A stretch of 64,000 nt of DNA from an uncultured delta proteobacterium (GTDB taxonomy: Bacteria > Desulfobacterota > Binatia > Bin18), in the NCBI GenBank assembly GCA_963733195.1, contig CAVTCR010000073.1, forward strand, positions 32,001 through 96,000, given 5' to 3'. The position numbers and the translations under genes were made by a program. Position 1 is the stretch's first letter. The number at the start of each line of letters is the position of its first letter. The notes below the pieces were generated by a model. That model worked only from the letters and a program-made list of their open reading frames with translations, was not told where the DNA came from and did not search any database. Shown here piece by piece: positions 19,935-40,563 of this stretch.

Positions 19935-20834
19935 CTACTGCTTCTCCAGTGCTATCTCTCGTCGTAACAGTTCGGGAACGGTTTCGTCGCTGACCTCCAA
20001 GCCAGTGGCGAACTGGAGTTCGTTCATCGTCTTTTCGGTTTGGACCATACTGGTGACGACTTGGTCGACTTGACCGGAGATGAAATCGGGTTCTTGGCGA
20101 TTAATAGCTAACTCACTTAGAGATTGAATCTTGTTTTCGAGTCGGTCGATTTCTAAACGCACGATTTCCCGATTGTCGCGGGCTTTTTGTAGATTCGCCA
20201 AACGCGCTTTGCTCGTTGCCAAATGATCTTCGAGGGTTTTACGAATTTTCTGTTGCTGTGGGTCCTCGCTGTTGCTTGGGACACCATTAAGTTGCACTTC
20301 TAATCGGGTAATGTCTTTCTGAATCTGGTCGTCGCTTGTGCGCATGAGAAAGCGATCAAGCGCATATTGCGAAAACAGCAAACGCAAATAGATCCATAAC
20401 AAACGATCGAGTCCAGCGAATTGCATCTCTTCCAGTGGATTATCGGTTTGCAGGGTCGGGGTAGCACCAGGCGATTTCACCAGCGTCGGGTCCTTGATCT
20501 CCATCGCGATCTGTCGCAACTCCAGACAACGTCGGCGCAGTGTTTCAAACCGTTGACGCATGTTGTCTGGCAAGGCGTTCATAAGTCGCTGAAGCGTCTG
20601 ATCCGCGCTCACTGCTCCCTGCTCACGAGTGGCCTTGGCTGCTTGTGCATCAACGTAGCGCTGGAACTTCGAGTTGGCACCGAGCAATCCGACATACGTT
20701 AGCTCTCCCGCGAGCACGAGGGGAATGAAAACGTCCGGTGCTCCACTCAGCCAGGCAAAACCCAGCGAGCCAAAGAGCGCGAGCAGGTTCCAGCGATTTT
20801 TGAAAGCTGCTTTAAGATACCGACCGAATCCCAC
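19935..20834 (-). CDS. Two-TM membrane-anchored coiled-coil hypothetical protein
   Basis: N-terminal hydrophobic hairpin followed by long Leu/Gln/Glu heptad helices; 22 bp after the ABC ATPase. Confidence 0.75.
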   Translation of the reverse strand: MGFGRYLKAAFKNRWNLLALFGSLGFAWLSGAPDVFIPLVLAGELTYVGLLGANSKFQRYVDAQAAKATREQGAVSADQTLQRLMNALPDNMRQRFETLRRRCLELRQIAMEIKDPTLVKSPGATPTLQTDNPLEEMQFAGLDRLLWIYLRLLFSQYALDRFLMRTSDDQIQKDITRLEVQLNGVPSNSEDPQQQKIRKTLEDHLATSKARLANLQKARDNREIVRLEIDRLENKIQSLSELAINRQEPDFISGQVDQVVTSMVQTEKTMNELQFATGLEVSDETVPELLRREIALEKQ

Positions 20835-20856
20835 AACATACTCCGTATGCGAGCGA

Positions 20857-21777
20857 CTATGTCGCTGCTCGACGACTCTCTTCTAACTGACTGATCAGGT
20901 CACGGAGGTGATATACCGTCTCCTGAAACTTAGGATCACGCTGCATCTCCTTCGATGGTCGATCAGAAGGCTGAATTGTCAGTTCCTGGAGAATCGTTCC
21001 TGGCGAATTGCTCATGACATACGCGCGATCGCCAAGAAAGACTGCTTCCTCAATCGAATGGGTAATAAAGAACACCGTGGCTTGTACATCGTGCCACAAG
21101 GCAAGTAACAAGTCCTGCATGTTCATGCGGGTTTGTGGGTCAAGCGCGCCAAACGGTTCATCCATGAGAATAATCCGCGGTCGTAGAATCAACGTTCGGG
21201 CAATTGCCACACGTTGACGCATGCCACCCGAGAGTTCGTGTGGGTACTTATTGTGATCGGTGTTGACGTTGAGCCCCACCCGTTGAATCCATTCTTTCCC
21301 AAGCTCTTCGCGCTGTTTACGAGGGAGACCTTGGCATTCCAAACCAAAAGTGACGTTTTCAAGGACGGTGCGATGATCGAAGCTGGTATAATCTTGAAAG
21401 ACCATGCCACGATCAGCGCCTGGTCCTATGACCGGCTGTTCCTGAACCAGCACGTCACCAATGGTCGCGGGATGCTGTGGCTCTAGTCCGGCGATGAGAC
21501 GTAGGATAGTGCTCTTGCCGCAGCCGCTGGGTCCGAGAATGCAGATAAATTCACCTTTCTCGTGGAAGTCTTCGACGACGAATGAGACATTCTTGATAGC
21601 TGTGAACGCATTCGGTTGGTCGATATTGTAGATCTTGGTCACGCCACGAAACTCGACGATGGTCGGTCGTGCGATTTCTGCCGGGGTGCGGACATGCTCC
21701 AATACCTGCCCTACACCAACTGGCTGAGCTGGAGGGGATGCGGTTTGAGGAGCCGGTGCAGTTTCGCTCTGACTCAT
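20857..21777 (-). CDS. ABC transporter ATP-binding protein, NitT/TauT family
   Basis: GPSGCGKS, LSGGMRQRVAIAR, ILMDEPFGALD, ITH. Confidence 0.95.
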   Translation of the reverse strand: MSQSETAPAPQTASPPAQPVGVGQVLEHVRTPAEIARPTIVEFRGVTKIYNIDQPNAFTAIKNVSFVVEDFHEKGEFICILGPSGCGKSTILRLIAGLEPQHPATIGDVLVQEQPVIGPGADRGMVFQDYTSFDHRTVLENVTFGLECQGLPRKQREELGKEWIQRVGLNVNTDHNKYPHELSGGMRQRVAIARTLILRPRIILMDEPFGALDPQTRMNMQDLLLALWHDVQATVFFITHSIEEAVFLGDRAYVMSNSPGTILQELTIQPSDRPSKEMQRDPKFQETVYHLRDLISQLEESRRAAT

Positions 21778-22731
21778 GACTTTGCTACCGGAGGATTGGT
21801 TGGCTGTGATGTTACCGAAACAGGCGCCGGGTGCCTACGAAAGGCCGCAGTAATGTCTTCCCAGGTATGAAGTACATTCCGAAGCATTCGGTTCAGTACC
21901 CCAGTGCCACCATAGCGATGGGGAAACAATTCCTTTTGTATCCAGAACAACAGCCGGTCGATGAGCAGAGCGACGATCGGAATGATAATGAGTATTAACA
22001 GAATGTGTTCACGTGGACCCCGACGCATCGAGAGATTAATAAGATGTCCCAGGCCTCCCGTGTCGCCAATCGTCACTAACTCGCCCAACATGATGTAACC
22101 GAAAGCGAGGCCGAACAACAAACGGAGCGAGTTGAAAACACTCGGCATGGCTAACGGCACTAACACCTTCAAAACAGTCTGCCAACGACTGGCACCGAGC
22201 GTGTAGGCAGTATCGATGTACTGGTTACTCACGTCCATGATTGCACGCGCTGTGTCAGAAAAGACAAAGGCGACGCAGGCAATAAAAATGAACATCACTT
22301 TCTGAAATTCGCCAATACCGAACAGTGAGAAGGTGAGAGGGATTAATGCCGCAACTGGAATGTTACGCCCGAAGACAGACAAGGGGGCGAAAAAGGCGTT
22401 GATACGCGAGAAGCAGCCGCATAGCACGCCCAGCGGAACACCAATGAGAGCGGCAAGTCCAAATCCCAGTAGTACGCGCCACAGTGTCGCCAGGAGGTTG
22501 CGCGTCAGCGCGCGATCGAACCAGAGAGCTGGAGAATGATGCTAATGTTTCTCCCGGACTGGGCAAGACTGCGTAACTCAAAATTCGTTCTTCCGACTCA
22601 CCTCGGGTGACAAACCACCAAATGCCAATGCACAAAGTGAGGCATATCGCTCCAAACAGCCACGCTTGCCACTGGGGGGCTTCTTTGCGTAGAGCGAACA
22701 AGGAAAAAGAGGAGAGCGGGTCGGTTTTCAT
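21774..22731 (-). CDS. ABC transporter permease, NitT/TauT family (frameshift near 22530)
   Basis: LPSPGET in the first frame continues as LWFDRALTRNLLATLWRV...; EAA-like YIDTAYTLGAS. Confidence 0.85.
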
Positions 22732-22794
22732 CGCGTTTCAACGGCTCACGATATAGAGATCCCGTCTGAAATGTTTAGCGGGCTCAGGATTTTT

Positions 22795-22823
22795 GTAGAG
22801 ACGCCCCGGCGAGGCGTCTCTAC
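22795..22823. repeat. GTAG-type REP palindrome
   Basis: GTAGAGACGCC...GGCGTCTCTAC. Confidence 0.75.
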
Positions 22824-22844
22824 CCCATTCATAAACAGGCTGTT

Positions 22845-24625
22845 TTATTGTTTCTCCGCCGAAAAAATCCGCACCTCTACGCGGCGGTTTTTAGCGTGGT
22901 TCTCTGCATCGTTGCGGTCGATAGGCCGGTCCCAGCCCACACCATCAACCGCAAATTGGTTGGGATTTAACTTGAACTTGCGTACCAGCGCTTCTTTGAC
23001 GGCGTTGGCACGATTCATCGACAATTCTTTTACCACCGACGCAGGAACCTGGCCTTTCATTGAACTATCGGTATGGCCTTCGATAATGATCCGTGCCGCC
23101 CCGAATTGTCCGACTAATCGTCCGACTTCTTCCAGCACAAAATCCACCCGAGGGTCGTAGAGTTCTTCGACTTTCTTGCCATCTACTTCTTTGGTGACCT
23201 TCTTCAACAAATCCCAACTATTGGGATAGAAATGAATGATGATCGTGTTGGTCAGAATTTCATCTGATTCCCCACGAATATCACTCACCGTCGCTGGCGC
23301 GAGTTTGATCTGGTACTCATCTTTTTGTGCGGCATACTTCGGCTCTTTGCCCAGTTTATCGATAATTGAGAAATCCATCACCTGATCAAACGGTACAGGC
23401 TGGTGGGTGATCGCTCTAATACGTCGATACAGATAGTACGCCTGATTCCAAATCCTCTCAAAGTTGGTCGGGTTGTTTTGGTTCAGAAAGAACTGATGAT
23501 TCTCTCCCCAGTTGGTATTGTGCGCATCTCCGAGCATACTCAGCGCTTCGGTTGCTGGGATGTTGTACCCCTGCGCCATCAATTCCGCTAACCGCTTCTT
23601 TGCATCCTCGCTCTTCAAATCCTGCATGGCGTCGAAAATGCCGCGCACGAGCCCCTCAATAATGCCAGGATTATCTTTGGCGAAGTCTGCGCGTGCAAAC
23701 CATACATCGGCAATCAGTTTGTTGGCAGTAGAGGTGTTGACCAACATTCGGTTGCCACGAATCTTTTCCAGATTGTAAATATCGGGTGCCCACGAGACCA
23801 CGCCAGCCAGATCTTTCTGCGCGTTAAAGGCAGCCGCAGCCTGGAAAGCATCCTCGGTAAAGACCATCTGTACTTCGGCTGGCTGGACACCGCCCGAGAC
23901 ACAGCATGTTCAACGCGAAGTAATGTGAGGGTGAATTTTGTGCGAGCACTAACTTTTTCCCGCGGAGGTCGGCAACCGTTTTGATGTTTTCACGAACGAC
24001 AATCCCGTCACCGCCGCTAGACCAGTCGATTTGCTGATAAATGCGGGGCATGACACGACTGTCGCGTGGCTTACCAGTTGAATCGACAAAGCCTTCCATG
24101 AACAATGGGACCATATCGAGTGTGGCCCAACCGATGTGGACCTCACCAACGGCGTAGGCGTCTCGCATTGCCACCGGATTATCGATCAGGACGAGTTCGA
24201 CTTTGAAGTCTTTCCCATCGGGTGTTTTCCACACCTTGCCTGACTTAAAGCCGTTGTTGGCGAGAATGATTGGACCCCAACCGGCCCACACATTCAGGGC
24301 GAAGCGTACGGTGTTATCGGCGAGCGGCTTGTACCCGGCAGTCCCTTTTACTTCAGGCAAACGTTCGCTGGGTCGGAAACTATACTCTTTGACGGTGGTG
24401 ACGCTAGCCGAATCTGCAGCCTCTGGGCCTGCATCAGCAGGAGACGAAGGCATAGGAGTGACACCAGGAGTGACGGTTGGGGTTGTCAGTTCCTAGATCG
24501 GCAGGTTGATTTTCTTGCGTTCCTTTCGGCGCCAGTAGGTCACTCCGGTTCATAGCGAAATACACCAAGCCGCCGACGACCAATAAGAGGGCAATATAAA
24601 ACGGTGCTTTTGGTCCCCCACCCAT
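22845..24625 (-). CDS. Membrane-anchored NMT1/THI5-like substrate-binding protein fused to a C-terminal OmpA-like domain (frameshifts near 24485 and 23903)
   Basis: N-terminal TM; WAGWGP, TLD, DWSSGGDGIV, DLRGK; C-terminal IEGHTDS, LSMNRANAV, GVGWDRP, KNRRVEV. Confidence 0.85.
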
Positions 24626-24668
24626 ATGTGTTGTCTCCCGTCAGATATTTGGTTGTGTTTTCGTTATC

Positions 24669-24695
24669 GTAGGGGCGTATAGCTATACGCCCCTA
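24669..24695. repeat. GTAG-type REP palindrome
   Basis: GTAGGGGCGTATAGCTATACGCCCCTA. Confidence 0.75.
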
Positions 24696-24699
24696 TACG

Positions 24700-25248
24700 T
24701 TATCCATGGAAAGTAGTTTTCGGTCGTGCTTGCTCCATCGCATATAACATCTGCATGATGGCATACGCTGTCAACTCGCACAGCAGTTGTGTGACCTTTG
24801 CGTGCAATGCATCGTCGAGTTGCGGGTCGATCTCTTTCAGTAGTTTGACGACCAGTTTTTCTTGACTTTGTATCTCAGCTTCGTCAACCCGACCATCCGC
24901 CATTGTCGAAATAAACGATTCGAGCTGGCGTGCATGGTCATCAATCAGCGGGGTTTGCGTCAATTCGTCAACCCAGCTTGGGCGGTTAGGCGAGACGGTA
25001 GGTTTCTGGACGGGCTTTCTTGCCGGTACAGCTTTACGGGTGAGAACCTTTGGTTTTACGAGTTTACGTGTGGCGGGTTTCTTGACTGCTTTCTTCATGG
25101 CGACTTTTTTTGCGACAGATTTCTTCACCAGTTTTTTCACGACCTTCTTCTTTGCCGCGAGTTTTTTTGCTGCTGCTTTTTTCTTCGTCGCTGTGGCTTT
25201 TTTCACGGGACGGGGAGATGTTCGCGTTTTTACTTTTTTTGCTGCCAT
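24700..25248 (-). CDS. Protein with a Lys/Ala-rich histone-H1-like N-terminus and an acidic helical C-terminal domain
   Basis: KKATATKKKAAAKKLAAKKKVVKK tract, then TMADGRVDEAEI-containing domain; RBS AAGGAG. Confidence 0.75.
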   Translation of the reverse strand: MAAKKVKTRTSPRPVKKATATKKKAAAKKLAAKKKVVKKLVKKSVAKKVAMKKAVKKPATRKLVKPKVLTRKAVPARKPVQKPTVSPNRPSWVDELTQTPLIDDHARQLESFISTMADGRVDEAEIQSQEKLVVKLLKEIDPQLDDALHAKVTQLLCELTAYAIMQMLYAMEQARPKTTFHG

Positions 25249-25272
25249 GCCCTCTCCTTATCGTGGGACGTT

Positions 25273-27084
25273 TCACTGCTCGTTCAGTAACTGACGGATA
25301 GCGACGAAGCGTTCCTGTATCTGAGTGCGACCACCAGGTTGTGCGACCTTGGCACGGAGGTCAGGTGGAAGGAAATTGAGTTGGGTGCATTCGAGCACCG
25401 CCGCGAGTTCTTGTAATTCTTTCTCTAACCCTTGTGCCGACGGAATGAAATCGCGCACCGCTTCTTCGAGGTCTGCTTTTTGCAATTCGGTGCGCCCAGC
25501 CGCGAGGACGTGTCGTTTCGCACCCAAGACGATACTCTCAATATCTGCACCGCTGAGGTGGCGGTCGGCGCTGACCGCAGGAATGTCCTCTGGTGCGAGT
25601 TTGATTTTATTTTTGCGTGCCATGACTGCAAACATCTCACGGATTTCTGCATCATCATGCGGATAGAACATGGGAATATGCACTTCGGCTCGCCCTTGCC
25701 GCTTGATGTCAATCGGTAAGAGGTCAGGCCGAGAGGTGAGCAGCATCCAGACAATCTTGCCGCGATAACGGGTGTCGCCCATCTGGCTGGCGATCATGGA
25801 GAACACGCGACTCGAGGTGCCAGAATCGCCCTCGCTTTGGCGATTGCCAAGCGCAGCATCAGCTTCATCAATTAGGACAACCACTGGACCAAGAGAACGA
25901 AGGACGGTGAGGACTTGCTCGAGATTGCCTTCGGTTTCACCTACGTATTTCGAGCGGAAGTTGCGCAGTTTGACACAGGGAATACCAATCGACCCAGCGT
26001 AGCATTCTGCCAGGAACGACTTACCTGTACCCACCGGACCGCACAACAAATACCCCATCGGAGCGGCATCCAGTTGTCCGCTGGCAATCAGCGCTGCATC
26101 CTCGCGCAAGCGATCTTTGGCTGCTTGCTGGCCGACCACTAAGTCAAGCGTGTGAAAAGGTTCAATAAATTCCAACAGGTTCTGACATTGACGTTCGATT
26201 AGTGTTTTCTTGAGTTCGCCGAACTGCCGATCATCGACGCGACGGGCCGAATGTTTAGCTTGGGAGAGGAGCACATTCAAATTGACCAAGCTAAGACCGT
26301 TCGCTCGGTCTGCGAGTTGTTCGGGAGTGAAATCGGTCAGTTGGGAAAAGTTCTGCGTACGACCGATCCACCGTGAAAACTGCTCTCGTTCCACCTTTCC
26401 CGGCAGGGGCACTTCGATGGTTGCGACATGTGGATTCTGCACTAGTCGTGAGTTGATCTCTGAAAGCTTCTCGGCGATCAGGCAAAATGCAATGTTTACT
26501 CGTTTGATGTAGGGATTCTGCGCCCAGCCGAGAAAGCGGACTAAATTGGTTCCTGGTCCACGACCTAACAGACTGAGATCTCCAGCAGGAACTAAGTGTG
26601 AAGCATACTCAAACAGGAGACCGACACTTTTCCGCTGCGCGGTGTCTGGCTCTAAGAGGTTACGTTCAAGGAAGCGATCCAATAACAAGAGGACATTTTC
26701 AGGATCGCGCGGCCAGGAGCCAGCCTCACCAAGACGAGTGGTCAGTGTCTGAGCCATCATCTGTTGACGTTTGCTATTCCCTCCAGCAAACGGGCGTAAC
26801 CCGCGTCCGAGGTCATAGTGTACGACCAGATCCCAAGCACCAAACACTTGTGTGGCAAGAAATTCACTCAGCGTAGTGTAGGTATCTTCCTCTTCTGGGG
26901 TCGTTGCCGGACAGCGAACCAGATCATGAATATTGCCGTGCAGAACAAAGACACAGGTTGTGCCAGAAAAATACAGATCCGCGAGCTCACGTGCCCAACT
27001 TGGATACCATGAAGGAAGGGCGGGAACACCGGTCGGTCTCTGAGGCGACAACGGTTCTGGAGTAGTCGTGAAAGCCACACGCAA
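25273..27084 (-). CDS. Classical-clade AAA+ ATPase with a degenerate N-terminal module
   Basis: Walker A GPVGTGKS, pore loop SKYVGETE, Walker B VLIDEAD, SRH TSRPDLLP..KRQGR, SGADI. Confidence 0.9.
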   Translation of the reverse strand: MRVAFTTTPEPLSPQRPTGVPALPSWYPSWARELADLYFSGTTCVFVLHGNIHDLVRCPATTPEEEDTYTTLSEFLATQVFGAWDLVVHYDLGRGLRPFAGGNSKRQQMMAQTLTTRLGEAGSWPRDPENVLLLLDRFLERNLLEPDTAQRKSVGLLFEYASHLVPAGDLSLLGRGPGTNLVRFLGWAQNPYIKRVNIAFCLIAEKLSEINSRLVQNPHVATIEVPLPGKVEREQFSRWIGRTQNFSQLTDFTPEQLADRANGLSLVNLNVLLSQAKHSARRVDDRQFGELKKTLIERQCQNLLEFIEPFHTLDLVVGQQAAKDRLREDAALIASGQLDAAPMGYLLCGPVGTGKSFLAECYAGSIGIPCVKLRNFRSKYVGETEGNLEQVLTVLRSLGPVVVLIDEADAALGNRQSEGDSGTSSRVFSMIASQMGDTRYRGKIVWMLLTSRPDLLPIDIKRQGRAEVHIPMFYPHDDAEIREMFAVMARKNKIKLAPEDIPAVSADRHLSGADIESIVLGAKRHVLAAGRTELQKADLEEAVRDFIPSAQGLEKELQELAAVLECTQLNFLPPDLRAKVAQPGGRTQIQERFVAIRQLLNEQ

Positions 27085-27087
27085 CCC

Positions 27088-27843
27088 CTATGAACTCTGC
27101 TTGAGCGTTTCGGCCTGTGCTGGTCCGAGTTCTTTCTGGCTTGCCGCTACGCCAGCACTCTCCGGGGTGACCATGCCCATTTGCGTTTCAAATTCACGCA
27201 AGGCTTGCTCGGCTATGTTTCTCTCCACGGCTTCTTCGCGTTTGATATCGGCCACACCTTCGCTGGAGAGATCGGCGGCGACTCGCGACTTGGCACGGTT
27301 AAGGTTGATCTTGTCATGAATGACCTGTTCAATTTGCCCGAAATCGGTTGTCACATCGAAGTTGAACGTATTTGCCAACTCCGCCATCTCAGCTTCGGCA
27401 CGACTCATCTTCAACTCAGCATCATACTTGGTGATCTTGTCGCGGATGTCAGCGAGTTTTTTCCCGGCGTGTTTAATCTTGGCGAGATTATTATTATAGG
27501 CCTCCTCATGCAGCGTGAGATTATTTTCATTTTCTGCCAGTTGGTTTTTGGCTTTTTGCAAATCGAGAGCATGTTTGGCTGCTGTCTCACGATCCCCGGC
27601 CTGCAGATAGGCTTTGATCCGTGCTTCGAGTGAAGACACTTGAGTTTTATCGTTGGCGACTCGGCGCATAACTTGTTCGACTAACGCCCGGTATTGTGCC
27701 AACCCTTCACGCCCACCTTTGAGTTCTTCGACCGCCTGATCATACTCATACTGCATCTGTGCGATCGGGTCTGAGGCCCAAAAAAAGTTGGCGAGTTTAT
27801 TGAGTTGAGCTTGGAGCGTGACCCACAATTTTTCGAAGATCAT
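27088..27843 (-). CDS. PspA/IM30 (ESCRT-III superfamily) protein, divergent, with C-terminal extension
   Basis: Amphipathic N-helix, DP at start of helix 1, AGDRETA hairpin turn, long coiled coil, 251 aa. Confidence 0.75.
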   Translation of the reverse strand: MIFEKLWVTLQAQLNKLANFFWASDPIAQMQYEYDQAVEELKGGREGLAQYRALVEQVMRRVANDKTQVSSLEARIKAYLQAGDRETAAKHALDLQKAKNQLAENENNLTLHEEAYNNNLAKIKHAGKKLADIRDKITKYDAELKMSRAEAEMAELANTFNFDVTTDFGQIEQVIHDKINLNRAKSRVAADLSSEGVADIKREEAVERNIAEQALREFETQMGMVTPESAGVAASQKELGPAQAETLKQSS

Positions 27844-28190: not shown

Positions 28191-29669
28191 ATGAAACAAC
28201 TATCTGTCGTCGCAAAATATACCTTTGCAGGGGTACTGTTCGGTTGTTGTTTGCCGCTTGGGGCGACGATACTGGACCTATCAGTCCAAGGCCGATCCTT
28301 TACCCTTATCGACATTATTGCGGTGCAACGTTTACAGCCGTTCCACTGGGTTATTGATACAACACCGTTTTTTCTTGGACTTCTCGCTGCCCTGGTCGGG
28401 AAACGTGCACAAGCAGCTCAATACTATCAGCCCTTCTTTTCGCTGTCGCTCGATGTGCTGTGTATCGCTGGGTTTGACGGTACCTTTAAGCAAGTGAACC
28501 CCGCTGTGGAAAAGATCCTGGGGTACACCGCGGGCGAAATGATTGATCATCCGTTTCTCGAGTTTGCTCATCCAGACGACCATATAGCAACCATTGAGGT
28601 GACGAAAAACCTTGCGAATGGAAACGATGAGATTGACTTTGAGAATCGCTACCGTTGCAAGGACGGTTCCTACCGGTGGCTCTCATGGCGAGCGAGGTCC
28701 GTGCTGGACCAACAACAGATCTACGCAATTGGTGTGGATGTGACTGATCAGAAACGGATGGAAGAAAAGCTTCATAAACAAATCGCGGAGATTAACAGCG
28801 GAGTTCAAACGTTAGCTTCTTCGGTGAATCAAATCGTCGGTTCAATGGCACAACTGCTGGCTGCGACCTCAGAGACAGCGACGACCGTTGCTCAAACGGC
28901 GACGACGATCGAGGAAGTCAAACAAACGGCGTCTGTGTCGAGCCAGAAGGCACAGGAGATATCTGCCAGTGCCCAGCAGGCAGTGCAGGTTGCTCAGGCC
29001 GGCGAGCAGGTGGTGGAACTGGCACGCTCTGGGCTTGCCCGCGCCCGAGATCAGATTCGTTCGATTGCTGACAGTGTGTTGCAACTCGGCACACAAACCC
29101 AAGCGATCAGTGAGATTATTGCCTCGGTGAACGAACTCGCTGAGCAGTCAAACTTACTGGCCGTCAATGCGGCCATCGAAGCTGCGAACGCCGGTGAACA
29201 CGGCAAGGGATTTGCCATCGTCGCCCGTGAGGTGAAACGGTTAGCCGAACAATCAAAACAGGCGACCTCGCAGGTACGGTTGCTGCTGAGTGAGATTAAA
29301 AAGGCGAGCACAGCTGCAGTATTGGTTACCGAGCAGGGAGCAAAAGCCGTCGAGGCAGGAGTACAGCAATCCCTGGAAGCAGGCGAATCGATTCGCACAC
29401 TCAGTCAGGGTATTGCCGAAGCCTCGTATTCTGTCACCCAGATTGCCGTTTCCAGCCAAGAACAACTAGTAGGTATCGATCAAGTGTCGACCGCAATCTC
29501 CAGCATTCGCATCGCCAGTCAGCAGAATACTGTCGGCATCAGGCAAGTCGAAGAAGCTGTGCGAAACCTACAACAAGTAGGGCGGTCGTTGCAGTTATTA
29601 GCCGAGCAGTCAACGCTGGCATCGACCACGAGACTGGGCGGAGTAAGCCTTTCTTCGACTCAGGTGTAG
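28191..29669 (+). CDS. Methyl-accepting chemotaxis protein with PAS domain
   Basis: Two N-terminal TMs, PAS (HPDD..ENRYRCKDGSYRWLSW), hairpin NLLAVNAAIEAANAGEHGKGFAIVAREVKRLA. Confidence 0.9.
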   Translation: MKQLSVVAKYTFAGVLFGCCLPLGATILDLSVQGRSFTLIDIIAVQRLQPFHWVIDTTPFFLGLLAALVGKRAQAAQYYQPFFSLSLDVLCIAGFDGTFKQVNPAVEKILGYTAGEMIDHPFLEFAHPDDHIATIEVTKNLANGNDEIDFENRYRCKDGSYRWLSWRARSVLDQQQIYAIGVDVTDQKRMEEKLHKQIAEINSGVQTLASSVNQIVGSMAQLLAATSETATTVAQTATTIEEVKQTASVSSQKAQEISASAQQAVQVAQAGEQVVELARSGLARARDQIRSIADSVLQLGTQTQAISEIIASVNELAEQSNLLAVNAAIEAANAGEHGKGFAIVAREVKRLAEQSKQATSQVRLLLSEIKKASTAAVLVTEQGAKAVEAGVQQSLEAGESIRTLSQGIAEASYSVTQIAVSSQEQLVGIDQVSTAISSIRIASQQNTVGIRQVEEAVRNLQQVGRSLQLLAEQSTLASTTRLGGVSLSSTQV

Positions 29670-29774: not shown

Positions 29775-32700
29775 TCAGGCCCATGTCTCAAGATCCGACC
29801 GGAAAACGCGTACCCGCTGGAGAATTCCCTCGCGCTGGGTGTTGAACCACGTCATCGCACCAGCAAGGAGCGCGGCAAGTGTCAACAGGATCACTGCCTG
29901 GCTCAAGCGTTGTTCAGGGAACAGCATGATGAGTTGCCAGCCGATGTTCCACACGAGACTGGCGACTCCAGTATAGAGAAACGCGCGAACACGGATAGCA
30001 ATCCCAAGGAAGACACCAGCCAGGCTGAGAGCCAGCGCAACGATAAACACTCCCAATCCTTGGTGAAGGAAGACATCTGAGGTTGCACTGACATACAGTG
30101 TGGTTGTTGCTGCTAAGCGAATGGTATTCAACACCTGAGGCTTAAGTTCATGGCGGTGGAGATGTGCGAGGAGGAGGACACTCAGAGCAATTGGAGTCAC
30201 ATATAGTTGGACAATGTGGTACTGCTCCGCCCACATGGGAATCCATAAATATACTGCCGCATTGAAAGCCGCGAGCGCTAGATAGAGAGGTAGTGACCGC
30301 TCGGTTTCACGGTACGTGAGAAGGTACAGTGCACTCGCGGCAATGAAAGCAGTACCAGCATGAGTAGATGCAAGGTGAAATGGAATCGTTGCGAAGAGGA
30401 GGAACGGTATCACCATCACGACATGGAAAAGTGGCTCAAGTCGCACGAAATGATAAAGTGCGAACAAAGCGTAGGTAGCAATCATCAGTGCCGTTGTATC
30501 CCATGCTGATGCGGGAGCGAGACCGACGAGAATGAGGCGAATATAGAAACCCACTGCTCCGGCAAATAGTGCAGTGCCATAGGTCCACTGTGACGTTTGT
30601 GAGTGCCACGCTTGTCGTGCCCCCAAAGCAAGTAGCAACCCTGCTGCACCAAAGGCAGCGATCTTATCTGAGCCTTCACTGAGCCACTGTGGGGTGCTAC
30701 CGGCAGCAAGCGCAGTGAAGAGAGAGAATGCATGCAAGAGCCATTCAATAACAGCTAAACCAGCGGCGATCTGCCATGCCCACGACAGTAGTGGTGTGAG
30801 TATGCCCGATGAAGGGGGTAGGGTGTCTAGCGAATCTTCTGTCGGTTCCGCGTGGTTCTTTTGTAGTTTCCAGTCTGCCCACATAAAGAAACAGGCGATG
30901 ACGGCGAGTTGTAGCGAATACCACGGCCATAAGAGATGGATCTGCGCGAACGGTATCCACAGGAGGGGCCAATCGTGGAGCACCACCAAGATCATAGCAC
31001 CGGAGGCAAGTAGCCAACGCCGTTGCTGTCGCTGCCACCCGAGAACGGCCGCGGTGTCGATCAACACGAGTAGTGCAAGGAGTTGCTCATTGAACGGGGT
31101 CGGAAGCAGCACCAATGCAGTTATCGCAGCAACAAGACTGGGCTCGACCCATTGCGTCAGTATACTTCCGTAGAGGCTCAGTTCGTTCGCCTCCCCATTG
31201 GCGTTTCTCCCAGAGAAAATGCGAAGCACACACGGTGGCGCTCCATAAAGCGACAAAGAACGGGAAGTGGAAGACTGCGGAAACATACCCGAGCCAGGCA
31301 ACGAGGGCCGTGCAACTAAGTGCGACGAACAAGGCGTGACCTTCCCACGCCTGTTTATGTCGCCACCACAGGTGCAGGAACGAAAACGCCAACGTTCCGG
31401 TGAAAACAAGCAACTCAAGCCACTGTACGTCACTTGCAGGAAACAAACTGTCTACATTGTTGCTACAAAGGAGAAATACGAAGTGGCAGAGCCGTACAAG
31501 AAAAAACCCTGCGGGAAGGAGCAAGAACGGATGTGGGAGGTTATGCCTTTGCCAACTTAAGCGTGCAGTCAGTGCCTCTCCGTACAGGTGCCACCAGGGA
31601 ACGACGAGCAGCAGCAAGTTGAGCCAGACCAACTCACTGATGGGAGGACTAATTGGAAGCAGAAGTAGAGGCGAACTCGTCGCAAAGAGGGGTGGATCAG
31701 CCCACCATGCGGAGGTGAGAGTGGTGCCAACCCTGGTCAGAAGAAATACTGCAATCCATGAGAATCCGCTCCAATTGCTGTTGCGCAGCATCAGAAATAA
31801 ATACGCCGCGCTAGCGATGAGATAACCGGCATGTTGGAGAAGAGCGATGCGAGACAGGTGAAGCGTATCAAGAGACGAGAGCAAAAGGCAAAAACTGACA
31901 GTGAACAACCCAAACCACGGCCAGGTATCGGGCGCAATTGTCCACTGTGATTGCCGTGCATTCCACAGCGGCAGCGCGAAGTTTGCTGCTGCCCAGAGTG
32001 TGAACCCCCAGAGTACAGCAACTACGTTGACCTGATGCGTGAGTCCAAGCAGTGGGAGTATGCTGCTTAGGAAGGCAGTACCAAGCAGAGGAAGTGCGAA
32101 CCCACGGATCGTACTAGCTTCTGCTAGCCGCTGGACGAGTGGAAACAGACCGACCATAAAGACAAGGAACGTCAGTGACACACAGAGGTCTGCACGGAAT
32201 GGGGCACTAGCGAAGAACATCACTGCGCCACACAACGCCCAGAAATAGACTATCGCCGCGGCCCAGCTAATTGGCCGTACATACAATTGTCGTTCAGGTC
32301 GTTGACGAAGATGGTAAGCAAGCAGAGCAAGACCAGTGGCTACGAGCGATACAGTTAACCATTGATCTGCGGCGGCTGCTCCGCCAGGCCATAAGGTGAA
32401 CCTCGTCTTTGGGTGAACAAGTAACGCCTCTCCCCACAAAGTCGCAAGCACAGCGGCAAGTACCCCGGCGATCTGCAATGACGTGTGCCGCAGCGTAGAA
32501 CTTGCGGCAAAGAGCACTGTACCGGCAAAGAAGAGTGTCACTGTTGCGAGGATGTCGACGCTCTGTGGTGCATCAACCCATGCCAAGGCGAGTGCCTGAT
32601 TTATTGCGAACACTGCGAGCAGAAGCGCGGCATGACACAGCGGATCATGATAGAGCCAGCTTACATGTGGGATTGGTCCTGCGCTGAGGCGATCTTTTTG

Positions 32701-35700
32701 CACAGAGAGTTCCCACGCGAGCGTCCACCAGGTTAGCCCGATAACGCTTGCAAGAAGTCCTACGCCTTGATCACGGAACAGCGTGTAAATGCTCACATGG
32801 AGTGGGAGGACGATCCAACTGTAGCTTATGAGGGCAGTCAGAATAGCGACTCCTAATACCAGATAACTATGCACTTGACGCTGATACCGCCACCCGGCGA
32901 TGCTCAGAAATATCGCAACGCTAACTGGCGTACAGAAAAGTCCCACACTCGGAGTGAATATACCAACAAGTACTAAGGGAACCGCCACACACAACAGACT
33001 GCTGACTACGGTAGCCCAGTGTACGAACGTTTCAATCGTGCTTCGTTTGCCACCCAGATGGAAGAGGACAGCGAGGTGTGGAGTCCGGGAGTGTTTGAGC
33101 ACGACAATGCTCAGACTCCACATTAGGAATGAATAGAGCGCGCCAGCAAAGCCCAGAGTAGGGACACCAAAGGCACTAAGTCGAAACACTGAGAGCCAAG
33201 CACCAAGCCCTAACACGATTGCCATCGGGAATAACAATGGCAGTCGAAAGTAGCCGGCTCCTATCGCTGCTCCTAACGCCCCGAGGCCAGCCGAACACAT
33301 CCATCCCCAACCTACCGTGCCTTCGAGTAGCCGCATGGTGAGATGCCACAAGCCAATGACCCACAATACGACCATGGTCTGTTGCAACGGAGCACGAAGC
33401 ATCGTGGTATACGTAGCATTGCTAGAGACAGGGTATTGCCCCAGCAAAGTGAGCGGCACTCGCTCTTGTGCACGAATAGTGAGATATTCTTGATGTAAGG
33501 CAAGACTCTCCTCTGATTCGTGTTCCAGCCACCATAAAACGATCCACGCGCTCAGCGCTATGAGCATCTCGATCGTGCCAGCGCTAGGCTGAGGGAAATA
33601 GGTCAGCTTCAGGACGAGACCAGCGGTCCCCCATAAAGCCAGCACGCCATAAAAGAGGCCACGAATCCGTAGAGTCAGGCTCATGCCCAACAGGACGCTT
33701 CCTATTGCTGCCAACAGTAAGGGGAGAAGCCGATGGTAGGTAATATCAGGCAACGCTAGTGTTGCCGTCAGTGCCAGGGAGAAACCAAGGTTTACGAGTG
33801 TGCTGTTGAGCAGGACTTCAGCCTGACGAGCGTTGGTTGACGAGGCTCTATAGTGGAGTCGTGACCCTAGCGCAAGCCAGAGCCCAGCAAGAACAATAAT
33901 GCCGATAGCAGTCTGACCGACCCAGGTGGTGAGTGGCCACTGTGGCGCGTAGGCAACAGCGATACTTCCGAGCAGCATGACAGCATACAGCCATGAGCTT
34001 TGGCACAAGTCGGTGCATACCGCGTCGGCTGTTTGTTCACTCGCTGTTATTGGAGCAGAACGTAAACCATAGAAGACCAATCCCATTGTCGCCAAAGTAG
34101 TGGTCATCGCGCCTAGGCTCGGGTAGGCGTGTAACAAACTCCAAGCACAGACTGCGAATGTGGTTCCTAACCACACCCAATAACATGTCGAGGCTAATGT
34201 AGTCGCCCGATGTCGTTGGAGCCAGCGACTGGCAGCCAGGAGACCGACGAGACCTGGAAGACTCGCAAGAAAATGCCACTGTGGCAGCAAATGTTGAAGA
34301 ACCAACGTCTGATACAGCCAGCCGACACAGATGAGCAAAAGTGCCAGCGGAATGACAGTCACATACTGCCAAACGACAACGCTGTATACTGCGATGGCTA
34401 AGCATAACGTGAGTAGTCGCGCACCCGATGCCTCAACACTAAGAAGTAAGGCCAGTACCGAGAGTCCATAAAGAAAAAAGCTTACGCGCGAGAGAAAGGC
34501 GTACTGCTTCGTCCAACGCTTCAAATGCGCGTCGACATAGAAGAGGAGCCCGCACACCGCCATGAGGAAGGGACCATAATAACCAGCAGGTAAGGTCACC
34601 GGATTGGCGTGGCCCCAGGTAAGATGTACGAAAGAAACGGCGGCCGCGTAGACAAACGTCCCCACGGCGTAAAAGGCGACCTTACGGCGTTCGGCGAGAA
34701 TCGACTGAAGCCATTCGTGGGTAAATTGTCGTAGGCCATAGGCAAGAACTCCAAGTAAAGCACAGTGAGTGATAGCTAAAAAAATCCAGGATGGGTATCT
34801 GGCGAGTAGCGGGACCGTAATTTGCGCCGTTGCAAGGGCGAGGAAGAGCTGAGGATGTCGACCTTGGAGGGATCGGTCCATGACGCCGGAGACCAACATA
34901 GCGACATAGTAAAAGCCCAGCACCTCCACTGCGGTAAGAAATAGACCAATGGCTATCCAAGGAGTGGCTTGAGCGGTGGTGATCAGTCGAACTGCAGAGG
35001 CGATATTCAAGGGAATGAGGAGGAGACCAAGGGCAAGCAAAACGTGTCCTGAAGTGAGCTCGGGCCGGATGCGACATAAGCGATATCCTAGCCATAGAAG
35101 GAATCCGCTATAGGCGAGGAGAACCCCGGAAACAGCCAGTGCATTCGTCTGTCCACTGGTTGAAGAGATCAAGAACGTTGAGCCAGCAACGAAGCATAAT
35201 CCGCAAATAAACCACAGAATATTCTGGGCCAGGAACGGAACAAGCAGTGCTGGCCAGCGAGAGACGGTCTGGAGCGTACGCTCTAAGGCACTTGGGGCGG
35301 CTGGCACCCAAGCTTCATCAGGAGAAACAGAGCGGGAGACAGAGTTGGAGATAGAGATGGAAGAGGGTAAGTCTTCCTGCGACGGAGGTGAAACACTTGC
35401 TGTTAGTACTGGGGAGACCACCGGAGCTTGTTTGAGTAATACGGCTGACTCGCTTGGCAGTGGAGATAGAGTGGCTGTTGGTGGAACCTGAGTGGGTGAA
35501 GTCACCGCTTCGAGAGCAACGGATTGCTGAATTTCTTCTGTAAGGTGACTATAAGCTCGTGGCTGCAACGGAAGCGCGAGTTGCTGCGGTATTTCGCCAG
35601 AACGCCTCGTAGTGAGCTCCATCTCTCGCCAGGGGGATGGCCCAGGAGCAACGATCTGCTGGGAGACCAGGAGCTTCCAAGCTGCCTCGCGCCCCTCGCG

Positions 35701-36075
35701 CCAGCGTTGACTGTCAGGTGTGATATGGAGGTCAACGAGGGAATTGTCACAAAGTGAATTGATTTCTTTGATTATTCCCTTGAAGAATACAGAATCGATT
35801 TTCCCTGCAGCACATTGACGCGCAAGTTCATTACGCAAAATCAACAAGTCAATCAGCGTGCGGTTTGCGACGTTGATCGAGGACGATTCACGAGACTCAG
35901 GAGGTTGGAGCGAGGACGCCTGAGGTGCTGGTGTCAGGGAAGTTTGGGCTCGGCGGCGGCGATACAGCCAGACTCCTCCACACAACAAGAGAAAGAAGAG
36001 AAACTGGTGGTGAGCAAAAAACCTGAGGAGAGGGGAGAGAACCCACCAGGCGATGAGGGTAATAAGAAAATCCAT
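29775..36075 (-). CDS. Giant (~2100 aa) multi-pass membrane protein, DUF2157/DUF2339-like (one frameshift near 31166)
   Basis: ORFs 31087-36123 and 29775-31433 join at EPLR/SILTQW; dozens of hydrophobic helices; FLAQNILWF and C-terminal IRVRAFLYTG...LETWA. Confidence 0.75.
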
Positions 36076-36144
36076 GTGTACTCTTTTGTGTAAAATCGGA
36101 AGTTGTCCAGTCGGATATGTCACTCAATGCCGAACACTCACTTT

Positions 36145-36291: not shown

Positions 36292-36975
36292 TTACGCTGT
36301 CTGATCGCCAACGACTTTCTTCTTCAACGCTGCCAGCTCGTTATCTAATTCCCACTCCACTTCCATAGCTAAGACCTCTTTTTCGACACGAGAAGTGTGG
36401 CTGTTGACTTCATCCATCGCCTCGGCTCGGGCTTCCATTTCCGCCACTCGGTCTTCCATACGTGTAAAATTGGCATGCGCATCGAGCCCAGCTTTGAAAT
36501 GCGACAGCGTGTCACCCATATACTCCCGCGCTTGTGCCGCACGCTGCCGGGCAATCAGCATGCTGCGTTTACGTTTGGCTTCTTCAAGTTTCGCCTCTAG
36601 CGCATGTAACTGTTTTTTCAGATGTTCACTAGTGGCTTTTGCCGATTCCCACGCCGGTTCTAGTGACTGAATGATGCTGTCATACTCTTTCTTTCGCAGC
36701 AGTGCCGCTCGCGCGAGATCTTCTCTGTTAGCATGGAGTGCATCCTCCGCCTTTTTCATCCATTCAACGGATTGGCGACGATGGAGATCGAGGTCCTTCT
36801 GCAGTTGTTTCTCGCTGGCGATGGCATCGATTACGCCTTCCTTGGCCCGAGCGATGTTCTCTTCCATTTCGCGAATCATCTGTTTGATCATCCGTTCCGG
36901 ATCTTCGACACGATCAATCAAATCATTGATATTGGCGGTGATAATGTCGTTAATACGCTTGAAGAGGTTTGACAT
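36292..36975 (-). CDS. pspA: Phage shock protein A / IM30 family protein
   Basis: MSNLFKRINDIITANINDLIDRVEDPERMIKQMIREM, REDLARAAL, FTRMEDRV, ELAALK. Confidence 0.92.
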   Translation of the reverse strand: MSNLFKRINDIITANINDLIDRVEDPERMIKQMIREMEENIARAKEGVIDAIASEKQLQKDLDLHRRQSVEWMKKAEDALHANREDLARAALLRKKEYDSIIQSLEPAWESAKATSEHLKKQLHALEAKLEEAKRKRSMLIARQRAAQAREYMGDTLSHFKAGLDAHANFTRMEDRVAEMEARAEAMDEVNSHTSRVEKEVLAMEVEWELDNELAALKKKVVGDQTA

Positions 36976-37045
36976 AAGGAGGTCCTTTCTGGCTCGTTGA
37001 AGCAGGAGCCTGTGTTGAAAAATATCGGTACTTCGAGCTCAATGA

Positions 37046-40000
37046 TTAGGATTGCAAGGCGGTATCTGAGGTGGCCAATGTCAGTGCGGCTACTCGTGCT
37101 GCGCGAAGATCGATCTTGCCGGTTCCCAGGACAGGCAGCGTGTCAACGGCAAAGATATGTTCGCGCTTAGGAACCCACAACTTTGGGAGGTCTGTTTGAT
37201 TTAGATGGGTCCAAAGGACGTCGGCAGTAAACTTAGGGTGAGCGTAGAGGACAACCAATCGTTCACCTTTCTGTTCGTCCGGGATAGCCGTTACTACGCA
37301 TGACGTATCGCCCAGGATTTGGTGAACGGCTTCTTCAATGCGGAGGTGCGGCACCATCTCTCCACCGATTTTGCTGAAACGGGAAAGGCGGTCGGTGAGA
37401 TAGATGAACCCATCGTCGTCAATCTTGGCAATATCACCGGTGACATACCAACCGTCACGGATCACCTCGCGAGTTTTCTCTGGTTGGCCGAGATAGCCGA
37501 GCATTCGATTTGGGCCTTTGACGAGGAGGAGTCCTTCTTGCCCACAGGGAAGTGGAGCACCTGTTTCACGATCAACTACTTTAGCGACTACACCTGGGAT
37601 CGGATGGCCGACACTTCCTGGCTTGAGTCCGATCTGGCGCTGAGTTCCCTCTTTGATATCAGGCACATTGACAGCAATAGCCGGTGCCATTTCTGTGCAA
37701 CCATACCCTTCGAGGAGGTCGATGCCATACTTCTCGCGAAACTCTTGGGCGAGTGCTGGTCGTAGCTTCTCGGCACCTGCAATCGCGTAGCGTAATGAAG
37801 CGAATTCCTCGGCAGAGCATTTGCGTAGATAGGCAGGCGTAGAAAGTGGGCGTACTGATCAAGACGGTCGCACGATACGTACGGATCATCTCCCCCAGTG
37901 TTTTGGCATCAAGCGGGTTCGGATGATAAACGACCTGCCATCCGGCGACGAGCGGGAGCCACAGGGTGCCGGTGAAGCCGAATGAGTGGAAGAATGGGAG
38001 TGCACCCATGACGCAGTCTTGCGAGGTCGTGGTGAAAATCTGCTGCATTGCCTCGACGTTGGAGAGGATGTTGTGATGCGATAACATCACTCCCTTTGGG
38101 GTACCGGTGCTGCCGCTGGAGAAGATGATCGTAGCGAGGGAGTTTGGATTTTGTTGTGGACGATTCCACAGCCGCTGCAGCAGACGAGTCGGGGTGAGAA
38201 AAGCGACAACCGCAGTCCACACTCGCTGTGCTGAAGAAATATCCTTCAACAAATCTTCGACAAACACCATGCCTTTGTGTTCGTCGATCTTCGCTTTGGC
38301 AAGGAACGTCCGTGACGTCAGAATAGTGTGAAGGTTACTTTGTTCGATAGCGAGGTCCATCGCCTCACGCCCCGTGGTGAAGTTCAGATTAACTGGCACC
38401 TTTCCTGCGAGCAGCGTAGCGATATTGGCGAGTGCACCACCTACCGAGGCCGGGAGAATGAGGCCGATGTTTTCTTCTTGTGGTCGATGGCTTTTCAACC
38501 AACGCGCCAGCAAAAGGCTGCCGATCAGTGTTTTGCCATAGGTCAGTTTCCTACCGGTTGAATCAGCCATACAGAAGGAGAACCAACGACGTTTGGCGGT
38601 GTCAATGAAACGTAGGTGAAGCAGATCACGCTTGGTACGACGATGATCAACTGCTGCGCTGCCCAGATCCGCAATAGTATAACGTACGTGTTCAGCCGTA
38701 GCAGTAGAGGGGAGGGGAGAACCGAAGGAGACCGTGACCGGGTAGGGAAACCGTTTCGGCCATTTCCAGAAGAAGCGGCCATTGTCGAAACTAAAGATAC
38801 TGCCCCATAATCGGTCCAGGTGCACGGGAATGATCGGGACATTGTCGAGTCCTTGCATGATTCTTTCGAACCCACGCTTGAGGGGAAGAAGATTCCCAGT
38901 GCGACTGATCGCGCCTTCAGCGAAAATGCAGACAACATGGCCTTGGCGGAGTTGCTCACGTGCACGTTCGAGCGACTCCAACACGACCTTACGGTTACCG
39001 CTTTCCACCGGAATGGCATTCATGAGTCGCATGAACCAGTGAAGCGCCTTCTGTTCGTAGATTGGTTTGTAGACAAGGAAACGAATGAAGCGTTGAACGC
39101 AACCGCCAACCAGCAGGCCGTCGACGAACGACATGTGATTACATATCAACAAGGCAGGGCCACGAAGCGGAACATTTTCTTGGCCAACAATGCGGATACG
39201 ATAGATCGTGTGGGTCAGCAACCATAAGCTAAAACGTACAAAGAATTCCGGCACAAGCGTAAAAATATAGACTGCGACCAGTGCATTGAAGATCGCTGCG
39301 ACGAGAAGAAGTTGCGGAATCGTCAGTCCTGTTTTGAGAAGGACGACCGCGAGGACCGCCGAGAAGACCATGAACAGAGCGTTGATGATGTTGTTGCCAG
39401 CGATGATGCGCGAACGGTGCATTGCGTCACTGCGAAACTGAATGAGTGCATACAATGGAACAATGAAGAAACCGCCGAAGAGACCAAGGAGAAATAAGTC
39501 GGCTGCGATACGCCAGCCTGTGAAGGTCTGAAGGAACGCAACAGCGCCGATGACGCTCTCAGCCTTGATGGGCGGAGTGGCGAAGAAGAGATCAACCCCG
39601 AATAACGTTAAGCCAATTGCACCAAACGGTACGAGTCCCATTTCTACTTTGTGGCCCGAGAGTCGCTCACACAACAACGACCCGATACCAATACCGAGCG
39701 AGAAGCAGGTCAAAAAAAGAGTCACAATCTGTTCGTTACCACCCAAGACCTCTTTGCTGTAGTTCGGGAACTGGGACAAGAAAAGGGAACCGTAACACCA
39801 GAACCATGAGATACCTAAGATGGAGAGAAATACCGTTCGATCCTGGCGAGTCAGTTGAAGAATGCGCCACGTTTCACTGGCAACATTCCAGTTGATGGTT
39901 AGGGTTGGATCTGGGGCGGGCGAGTGTGGGATCTGACGACTCATGAGCCAGCCGCTGCATGCGACGCCAATCGTCGTCAGCGACACGAGCATGGTGCCCC

Positions 40001-40523
40001 ACGGTTGCACGCTAATGAGAATGCCACCGAGGATTGTGCCCAGTAGAATCGCCACGAAGGTGCCCATTTCTACTAAGCCGTTGCCCCCGACGAGTTCTTC
40101 AGAGCGCAGATGTTGGGGAAGAATGGCGTACTTCACTGGGCCAAAGAGTGTCGATTGCACACCACCGAGGAACAGAGAGACTAGAAGGATAGTGAGACTC
40201 TGCAAATAAAATCCTACCGCGCCAAGGAGCATCAGCACGATCTCTAACGCGACCGTGTATTGGATGAGCTTGGCCTTCTCGTACTTGTCGGCGATTTGTC
40301 CACAGGTGGCAGAGAACAGGAAAAAGGGCAGGATAAATAAGCCTGCGCTGAGGTTGATGAGTGTGTCGGAATCGATCGTGGTCAGAGCCGCGCCCTGAAA
40401 TGCGAACAGGATAACAAGCGCGTTTTTGTATACGTTATCGTTAAATGCCCCGAGGAATTGCGTCCAGAAAAACGGTGCGAACCGTCGTTGTTGCAGTAAG
40501 GAGAATTGGTTTCCGTTACTCAT
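37046..40523 (-). CDS. aas: LplT-like MFS + acyltransferase + acyl-ACP synthetase fusion (frameshift near 37835)
   Basis: TQFLGAFNDN, FGPVKY, NHMSFVD (HX4D), FAEG, FSSGSTGTPKG, EGYGCTE, TGD, SRFSKIGGEMV. Confidence 0.9.
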
Positions 40524-40563
40524 TGTTCCTTTGCCCTCCTAAGAGCGACGAATCACTCCTAGC

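Follow-up and report, generated by a model that had tools for sequence, protein, structure and literature searches.

The 64,000-nt stretch of DNA analysed here (the window; contig CAVTCR010000073.1, positions 32,001 to 96,000, from an uncultured delta proteobacterium of the Binatia) carries at its positions 19935..27843 a set of seven genes in which a divergent PspA/IM30 protein is paired with a tandem AAA+ ATPase. This arrangement is far beyond chance, as it is found in identical order in dozens of species. On balance, the seven genes probably form one operon for an envelope-stress or membrane-remodelling module, and the model that we favour, with some reserve, would have the ATPase recycle PspA polymers in the manner in which Vps4 recycles ESCRT-III.

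The first-pass annotation of this DNA had presented the cluster as a novel system. That claim has to be given up: passages of Ravi et al. (mSystems 2024, PMC11237479; preprint 2020) describe the operon type and propose a role for it. Going by these passages, the operon type and its remodelling role are already known as a comparative-genomic prediction; the present analysis adds quantified synteny, rearranged distant forms, a tail motif on PspA, two further partner proteins (KA and TMcc) and a likely transfer.

Layout of the seven-gene locus

All long frames within 19935..27843 lie on the minus strand, and the seven co-directional, closely spaced genes listed by the first-pass annotation were recovered at the same coordinates. 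PspA and the ATPase are 3 bp apart, provided that the TTG at 27084 is the start of the ATPase, and the 4-bp overlap of the transporter ATPase with the stop of the permease stands as described. A scan of the locus for promoters and terminators gave the same counts as in shuffled sequence. The features are as follows.

27843..27088, minus strand: divergent PspA/IM30 protein of the ESCRT-III superfamily, 251 aa (PF04012), with a conserved tail ending in KELGP
27084..25273, minus strand: tandem AAA+ ATPase, 603 aa (PF00004 at residues 345-471)
25248..24700, minus strand: K/A-rich small partner protein (KA), 182 aa, its C-terminal domain seen in the alignment of relatives
about 24625..22845, minus strand: fusion of a solute-binding protein (SBP) with an OmpA domain (SBP-OmpA), in three frames here, with domains taken from intact relatives
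24454..24478, minus strand: first frame switch of the SBP-OmpA gene, 25 nt against 24 in the nearest relative (alignment rows L018, L019 and L021)
23901..23902, minus strand: second frame switch of the SBP-OmpA gene, one extra base (alignment with three relatives; public contigs)
22731..21774, minus strand: ATP-binding cassette (ABC) permease, BPD_transp_1 (PF00528), NitT/TauT-like, in two frames here
22527..22529, minus strand: frame switch of the permease gene, one extra base (alignment with relatives; public contigs)
21777..20857, minus strand: ABC transporter ATPase of the taurine/SaoA/nitrate type, 306 aa (PF00005)
20834..19935, minus strand: TMcc, a membrane-anchored all-helical coiled-coil protein with two predicted transmembrane (TM) segments, 299 aa, outside known Pfam families

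The gene set is conserved and survives rearrangement

A scan of one genome per species yielded at least 577 confirmed relatives of the tandem ATPase, and the loci analysed are the best 80 of these. The best 120 database matches of the ATPase are 67-94% identical. Of the best 80 loci, 72 have at least 900 bp of flank, and in 69 of these the gene immediately upstream of the ATPase, on its own strand, is PspA; KA follows downstream of the ATPase in 69 of 74. The full set was counted in the 46 loci that extend at least 8.5 kb downstream: 34 carry KA, SBP-OmpA, the permease, the ABC ATPase and TMcc in the order of the window, one lacks KA only, six consist of PspA, ATPase and KA alone, and five show other partial forms. 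This gene-neighbourhood survey, which the first-pass annotation had named as a check, bears out that the genes are conserved together.

An even sample of the planctomycete phylum extends the family further: 43 of 301 genomes hold a full-length relative of the ATPase at E <= 1e-80, with identities of at least 53% in five of them and of 33-48% in most of the others. From the more distant planctomycete relatives we took 20 loci, whose ATPases are 34-55% identical to that of the window. Profile hidden Markov models (HMMs) found a PspA-like gene in 13 of these and TMcc in 12, and by tblastn 11 of them have SBP-OmpA and nine the ABC ATPase. Gene order differs among the distant loci, for example PspA-SBP-permease-ABC-TMcc-AAA, or permease-ABC-TMcc-AAA with PspA-SBP further on. 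Because the content is kept through such rearrangement, a functional unit is strongly supported. A third group (L117-L119) has ATPases about 47% identical over residues 22-504 in longer frames, with no PspA, TMcc or transporter nearby, and by these comparisons forms a branch of the ATPase family with a different context.

The ATPase joins a degenerate and an active AAA cassette

The first-pass annotation had described the ATPase as a classical-clade AAA protein with intact motifs, and this proved correct. The active cassette matches PF00004 at E 6e-23, and no Pfam domains other than AAA and AAA_22 come up at E <= 0.01. All 13 aligned ATPases agree without exception in Walker A (GPVGTGKS, residues 349-356), the pore loop (KYVG, 379-382), Walker B (IDE, 405-407) and the arginines of the second region of homology (SRH; R452, R462, R465). 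A conserved C-terminal helical extension follows this cassette.

A second, N-terminal cassette (residues about 21-300) carries GN[IV]HD at the P-loop position, lacks the Walker-A lysine and has D-Y for the D-E of Walker B, and the alignment thus marks it as degenerate. An AlphaFold2 model built from 13 sequences renders residues 21-300 as an alpha/beta domain; only this part, with pLDDT 70-88, is well modelled, the second half being poor and the mean 63.2. Foldseek aligned the model over 544-645 columns to p97, Cdc48, Rix7 and MSMEG_0858 (E 2.6e-12 to 1.8e-10) at low TM-scores of 0.26-0.42, which we attribute to the poorly modelled second cassette. By sequence, the PDB matches listed place the active cassette nearest to AFG2/Drg1, Cdc48, VAT and NVL (E 1e-33 to 1e-30). 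NCBIfam models scored 75.7 bits for PAN, 63.1 for CDC48 (TIGR01243, cut-off 802.65), 48.9 for FtsH, 48.9 for IteA and 37.2 for CdvC, all far below their cut-offs. Motifs and model together describe a tandem AAA protein with a dead N-terminal cassette and an active, Cdc48/AFG2/PAN-like one.

The degenerate N-domain also defines a separate family. A search of 1.84 billion representative sequences with it gave 1133 matches at E <= 0.001, 509 at E <= 1e-10 and 101 at E <= 1e-30. Three relatives of 818-856 aa (P0143, P0157 and P0201) carry two copies of the degenerate cassette in front of the following part of the chain.

The PspA protein carries a conserved C-terminal tail motif

As the first-pass annotation had proposed, the 251-aa protein is a member of the PspA/IM30 family. 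It matches PF04012 with 53.1 bits against a cut-off of 33.9, its residues 1-196 aligning colinearly to model positions 1-191 of 220 (46.9 bits in a six-frame search of the genome), and 16 of 16 aligned homologues match the same family. A profile search of the PDB with this protein returned nothing at E <= 0.1.

The tail of the ATPase-linked PspAs has a recurrent layout: the last helix, a segment reading ...QALR[DE]FE.QMG..., a variable stretch, and then K-x-[LIM]-G-P near the C-terminus. All 16 close ATPase-linked PspAs carry this motif, as do 8 of the 13 distant ones; among the five distant proteins without it, one reads KTLGT and four have a trimmed alignment that ends earlier. The window also holds a second, canonical PspA at 37011..36295 on the minus strand (PF04012, 163.6 bits), about 8.5 kb upstream of the seven-gene set, such that two PspA paralogues of one genome lie within about 10 kb. 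The canonical protein has another C-terminal end, without K-x-[LIM]-G-P, and in the proteins compared the motif appears specific to ATPase-linked PspAs.

A short conserved motif past a variable linker resembles a docking peptide, and we therefore read K-x-[LIM]-G-P as a possible handle for the ATPase, by analogy with the MIM motifs that serve Vps4.

Two further partner proteins

KA consists of a variable, basic K/A-rich N-terminal extension followed by a conserved domain of about 100 aa (residues about 85-182), and many of its relatives comprise the C-terminal domain alone. For this domain the best PDB match had E 3.9, there was no consistent Pfam family, and the Atlas gave only unnamed clusters of about 100 aa. 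KA is frequent in the close subfamily (the 69 of 74 loci above), whereas the HMM found it in 2 of the 20 distant loci, and its distribution marks it as a putative lineage-specific partner of about 100 aa. When a complex of the ATPase, PspA and KA residues 85-182 was predicted, KA scored 0.00 in both runs, which were made without controls and are evidence neither way.

TMcc is the more widely kept of the two, occurring in 36 of the 46 close loci as well as in the 12 distant ones. Its AlphaFold2 model (pLDDT 78.4) is all-helical, with a hydrophobic hairpin at about residues 14-53 and then a bundle of long helices predicted to be cytoplasmic; one hydrophobic segment, 35-53, lies above the Kyte-Doolittle (KD) threshold. 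A Pfam search over 26 members gave coiled-coil noise only. Judged from its distribution, TMcc is a widely co-conserved candidate partner that often adjoins the ATPase.

Two possible kinships of TMcc were considered, and neither gained support. As a PspA/ESCRT-III relative it had an hhalign probability of 0.2 against the PspA profile and no Foldseek match at E <= 0.001, Vipp1 standing at rank 25 with E 0.63; the Snf7 HMM (PF03357) gave no match on the TMcc frame at E <= 10, a weak test in which the control stayed below the cut-off even in Sulfolobus. As for a PspM relative, the Rv2743c HMM had no match on the TMcc frame even at E <= 10; the nearest named Atlas cluster is the Rv2743c family (score 0.87, 181 of 256 features in common). 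A VIA search returned best Z values of 9.6-9.8, generic for helical proteins, and about 20 of 50 second-look rows were BAR-type domains (Z 7.1-9.5), which we treat as a lead only. A search for longer, fused TMcc proteins found three singletons only, one with an ABC_tran domain, one with carbamoyltransferase domains and one with no domain.

The ABC transporter module

The remaining three genes encode an ABC transporter with NitT/TauT-type domains (SBP, BPD_transp_1 permease and ATPase), for which every equivalog score is below cut-off. The predicted order of the SBP-OmpA protein is an N-terminal TM anchor, an NMT1/TauA-like type-2 solute-binding domain and an OmpA-like peptidoglycan-binding domain. 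Intact relatives of 581 and 594 aa show the NMT1/Phosphonate-bd and OmpA domains, and the N-terminal hydrophobic anchor is also present in the window, in a third frame. The NCBIfam matches of the permease are SaoP/NtrB/TauC-like, all below their cut-offs, and the best match of the ABC ATPase is a taurine ABC ATPase with 212.9 bits against a cut-off of 357.

A PspA-recycling model and its alternatives

We propose that the divergent PspA, in the ESCRT-III manner, would form polymers on the inner membrane, at its cytoplasmic side. The tandem AAA+ protein would form a hexamer in which the degenerate first cassette acts as a scaffold or docking ring and the active second cassette bears the KYVG pore loop; it would recognise PspA by the K-x-[LIM]-G-P tail and, at the cost of ATP, draw subunits out of the polymer. 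The polymer would thereby be recycled or reshaped, as ESCRT-III is by Vps4. TMcc may serve as the membrane anchor or nucleator of the machinery. Together with its permease and ATPase, the SBP, with its TM anchor and peptidoglycan-binding domain, may import a small solute or report the state of the envelope, and KA may be a lineage-specific accessory factor. Taken as a whole, this model seems to us a little better than an even bet on the sequence evidence. A Vps4-like recycling role for the ATPase is plausible, the ATPase may bind PspA, and the ABC module may recruit the pair as a sensor.

Several results weigh against this model. Pfam finds no MIT domain in the ATPase at E <= 0.01, no Vps4 chain is among its best 60 PDB matches, and the CdvC model (NF041006), with its 37.2 bits against a cut-off of 650, scores below PAN and CDC48. 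Comparison by hhalign of the 251-aa PspA family with the canonical PspA of the window gave nothing (probability 0.1), so that the ESCRT-III fold of the 251-aa protein is carried solely by the Pfam HMM. In the distant loci that have TMcc, it is TMcc that stands directly upstream of the ATPase (11 of 12), whereas PspA does so in only 3 of the 20 distant loci; since TMcc adjoins the ATPase there, TMcc or another membrane protein could be the substrate. The first-pass annotation had described an ESCRT-III/Vps4-analogous pair. The analogy stands, but it does not extend to the build: with no MIT domain, a tandem AAA architecture and closer kinship to Cdc48/AFG2/PAN than to CdvC, the ATPase is by its domain make-up neither a Vps4 orthologue nor Vps4-like, and is best classed with the classical-clade unfoldases.

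The main rival, which we consider unlikely yet worth serious weight, puts the membrane proteins of the module in the place of the substrate: the ATPase would extract or unfold TMcc, the TM-anchored SBP or the permease (compare Cdc48, Msp1 and FtsH), and the part of PspA would be limited to sealing or stabilising the membrane meanwhile. Besides the position of TMcc in the distant loci, this is favoured by the nearest solved relatives of the ATPase, which are the Cdc48, AFG2, NVL and VAT unfoldases, and by two metagenome singletons (P0263 and P0225) that join a C-terminal piece of TMcc to a piece of the ATPase N-domain. These two are single sequences, however, and may be gene-calling artefacts. 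In the subfamily of the window it is PspA, not TMcc, that abuts the ATPase, and the six loci with PspA, ATPase and KA alone lack both TMcc and the transporter; both observations speak against this rival.

Those same six loci, together with L100 and L114, where the PspA-ATPase pair also occurs without a transporter, speak against a further, improbable explanation, in which the cluster is mainly a NitT/TauT uptake operon, its substrate being perhaps an osmolyte, a sulfur compound or a nitrogen compound, and PspA and the tandem ATPase are co-regulated general stress proteins that do not act on each other. The SBP, permease and ATPase do make up a complete type-I importer, most like taurine, SaoA/SaoP and nitrate systems, and one archaeal ESCRT locus type, in a passage of Makarova et al. 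2024 (PMC10936438), includes a ProX solute-binding protein. Against mere co-regulation speak also the cohesion of the set through rearrangements and the restriction of the tail motif to ATPase-linked PspAs. An anti-phage or abortive-infection system built on the AAA ATPase is very improbable: the generic IetA/IteA matches of the AAA cassette (56.8 bits in PADLOC, 48.9 bits in NCBIfam) and the ZorB/MotB matches of the OmpA domain in PADLOC are set against the absence of any PADLOC match for KA and TMcc, only weak matches of PspA to coiled-coil JetC models, a stable chromosomal context and the high conservation of the ATPase.

If the ATPase recycles PspA as the favoured model holds, ATP-driven turnover of ESCRT-III would extend beyond archaea and eukaryotes. 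The operon family offers a concrete candidate pair for the question of how bacterial ESCRT-III proteins (PspA, Vipp1) are disassembled, and it is an abundant and highly conserved family, with a candidate docking motif and two further partner proteins. A bolder version, which we regard as speculative and rather unlikely to be right in full, is a self-contained bacterial counterpart of ESCRT, with TMcc as a possibly BAR-like nucleator, a tail-docked PspA polymer, a hexameric recycling ATPase and a peptidoglycan-tethered ABC module gating from the periplasm. Were this true, the abundance of the cluster in Planctomycetota would connect it with that phylum's unusual invaginations of the membrane and its uptake processes, and its transfer into an unrelated lineage would show a portable unit.

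Relation to known systems

In the passages cited above, Ravi et al. (PMC11237479) report that a protein with two AAA+ domains, of which the N-terminal one is inactive, occasionally accompanies bacterial PspA, and propose for such operons an ATP-dependent membrane remodelling comparable to that of Snf7-Vps4. The parts named there are those found here, namely PspA, the two-AAA+ protein, an ABC ATPase, a permease and a PBPB-OmpA protein, and the cluster of the window has all of them together, including the inactive N-terminal AAA copy. The same passages contain no Planctomycetota, KA, tail motif or rearranged orders, and the overlap with the full paper may be larger; they mention "Snf7 homologs with a TM segment", a group that could, but need not, include TMcc. 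The main text of Popp et al. 2022 does not mention the PspA/tandem-AAA context, and searches of the full-text literature found no experimental study of the pair.

As far as the relevant passages go, a 2025 review (PMC7619361) holds that a Vps4-like ATPase is seemingly absent in bacteria, and Makarova et al. (PMC10936438) limit ESCRT systems to archaea and eukaryotes. Like the archaeal and eukaryotic ESCRT-III-Vps4 (CdvB-CdvC) loci, the present one sets an ESCRT-III-superfamily gene beside a classical-clade AAA gene, and the candidate substrate PspA has a conserved C-terminal tail motif as ESCRT-III proteins have MIM motifs. Unlike CdvB-CdvC, it has no MIT domain, a tandem AAA with a dead first cassette in place of one cassette, and a protein of the PspA rather than the Snf7 branch. 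Haloarchaeal "Halo_adaptin" loci, described in a passage of the same paper (PMC10936438), place an MIT-less Vps4-like ATPase downstream of a weakly PspA-like protein. There the ATPase has a VAT/Cdc48-type N-domain and the neighbours are winged-helix (wH) and adaptin-like genes, whereas the ATPase of the window has a degenerate AAA cassette in that position and is encoded beside the ABC importer and TMcc.

The proteobacterial PspF-PspA-PspBC system likewise partners PspA with an AAA+ protein and small membrane proteins. PspF is a sigma-54 enhancer-binding AAA+ protein with a helix-turn-helix (HTH) domain and is inhibited by PspA, whereas the ATPase here is of the classical unfoldase clade, with no Pfam domain but AAA at E <= 0.01; no locus protein matched Sigma54_activat, HTH, PspB or PspC at that threshold. 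TMcc resembles PspM (Rv2743c, M. tuberculosis) and LiaI (B. subtilis) as a small integral membrane protein co-encoded with PspA, and differs from them in its long, predicted-cytoplasmic helical bundle. The type II AAA unfoldases (Cdc48/p97/VAT, AFG2/Drg1 and NVL/Rix7) provide the best sequence and fold matches of the ATPase and share its D1-D2 build; unlike them, the ATPase has no double-psi-barrel N-domain, its D1 has no Walker A, and its first cassette begins at residue ~21.

A likely transfer from Planctomycetota

Within the family of the window, 6 of 24 other genomes have ATPase orthologues at 78-94% identity, and a seventh has only a 30%-identical relative. No orthologues were found in 16 genomes from other families of its class, nor in 200 other genomes sampled from its phylum. 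A quick maximum-likelihood tree was made from 79 of the best 80 loci, the short locus L090 being left out; by record title, 73 of its rows are Planctomycetota, four are from the window's own clade (Deltaproteobacteria or Binatia) and one is Acidimicrobiales. The window and four kin form one clade (SH-aLRT 100) nested among planctomycete rows beside Gemmatales (support 89); the root is unsure, given a very long outgroup branch. It is likely, judging from this distribution and tree, that the whole operon was transferred from Planctomycetota.

The Acidimicrobiales contig (L084) carries PspA, ATPase and KA at 61-62% identity on a long branch among planctomycete rows, and represents either a further transfer or a binning error.

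Frame switches and assembly quality

In the window sequence the SBP-OmpA gene is spread over three frames and the permease gene over two, a point absent from the first-pass annotation. Alignment to relatives locates an extra base near 23901 and another near 22527. In the related loci the SBP parts share one frame in 53 of 54 cases and the permease parts in 46 of 47, the sole exception to both being L083, whose split frames are probably a sequencing artefact too. In contigs from four public runs, which are short and come from 95-99%-alike relatives rather than from the source reads, one base is missing at 22527-22529 in both of the two that cover it and at 23902 in both of the two that cover that site. 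The window itself was in none of the public runs checked, the top share of sampled words being 0.21.

Outside the seven-gene set, two further frame switches relative to relatives lie at about 31163 and about 37800, which makes five sites in roughly 27 kb of comparable sequence. Since this density is high and the genes show no other decay, the switches point to assembly indel errors rather than pseudogenes, and those in SBP-OmpA and the permease are probably of this kind. Single-base indel errors seem to be frequent in the assembly and will break gene calls elsewhere too.

Neighbouring genes

Beside the canonical PspA, at 37052-40538 on the minus strand, lies a fusion of about 1160 aa with major facilitator superfamily (MFS), acyltransferase and AMP-binding domains. 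Its frame is split near 37800, and its make-up resembles that of an LplT-Aas system for lysophospholipid re-acylation. Between the two PspA genes, at 29775-36123 on the minus strand, a giant polytopic membrane protein is encoded in overlapping frames of 552 and 1678 aa, with the switch near 31163, and is conserved in relatives of the same genus. A PAS-MCP chemoreceptor-type gene at 28191-29669 on the plus strand is divergent to the operon, and it keeps this place in the clade of the window, at 64-77% identity.

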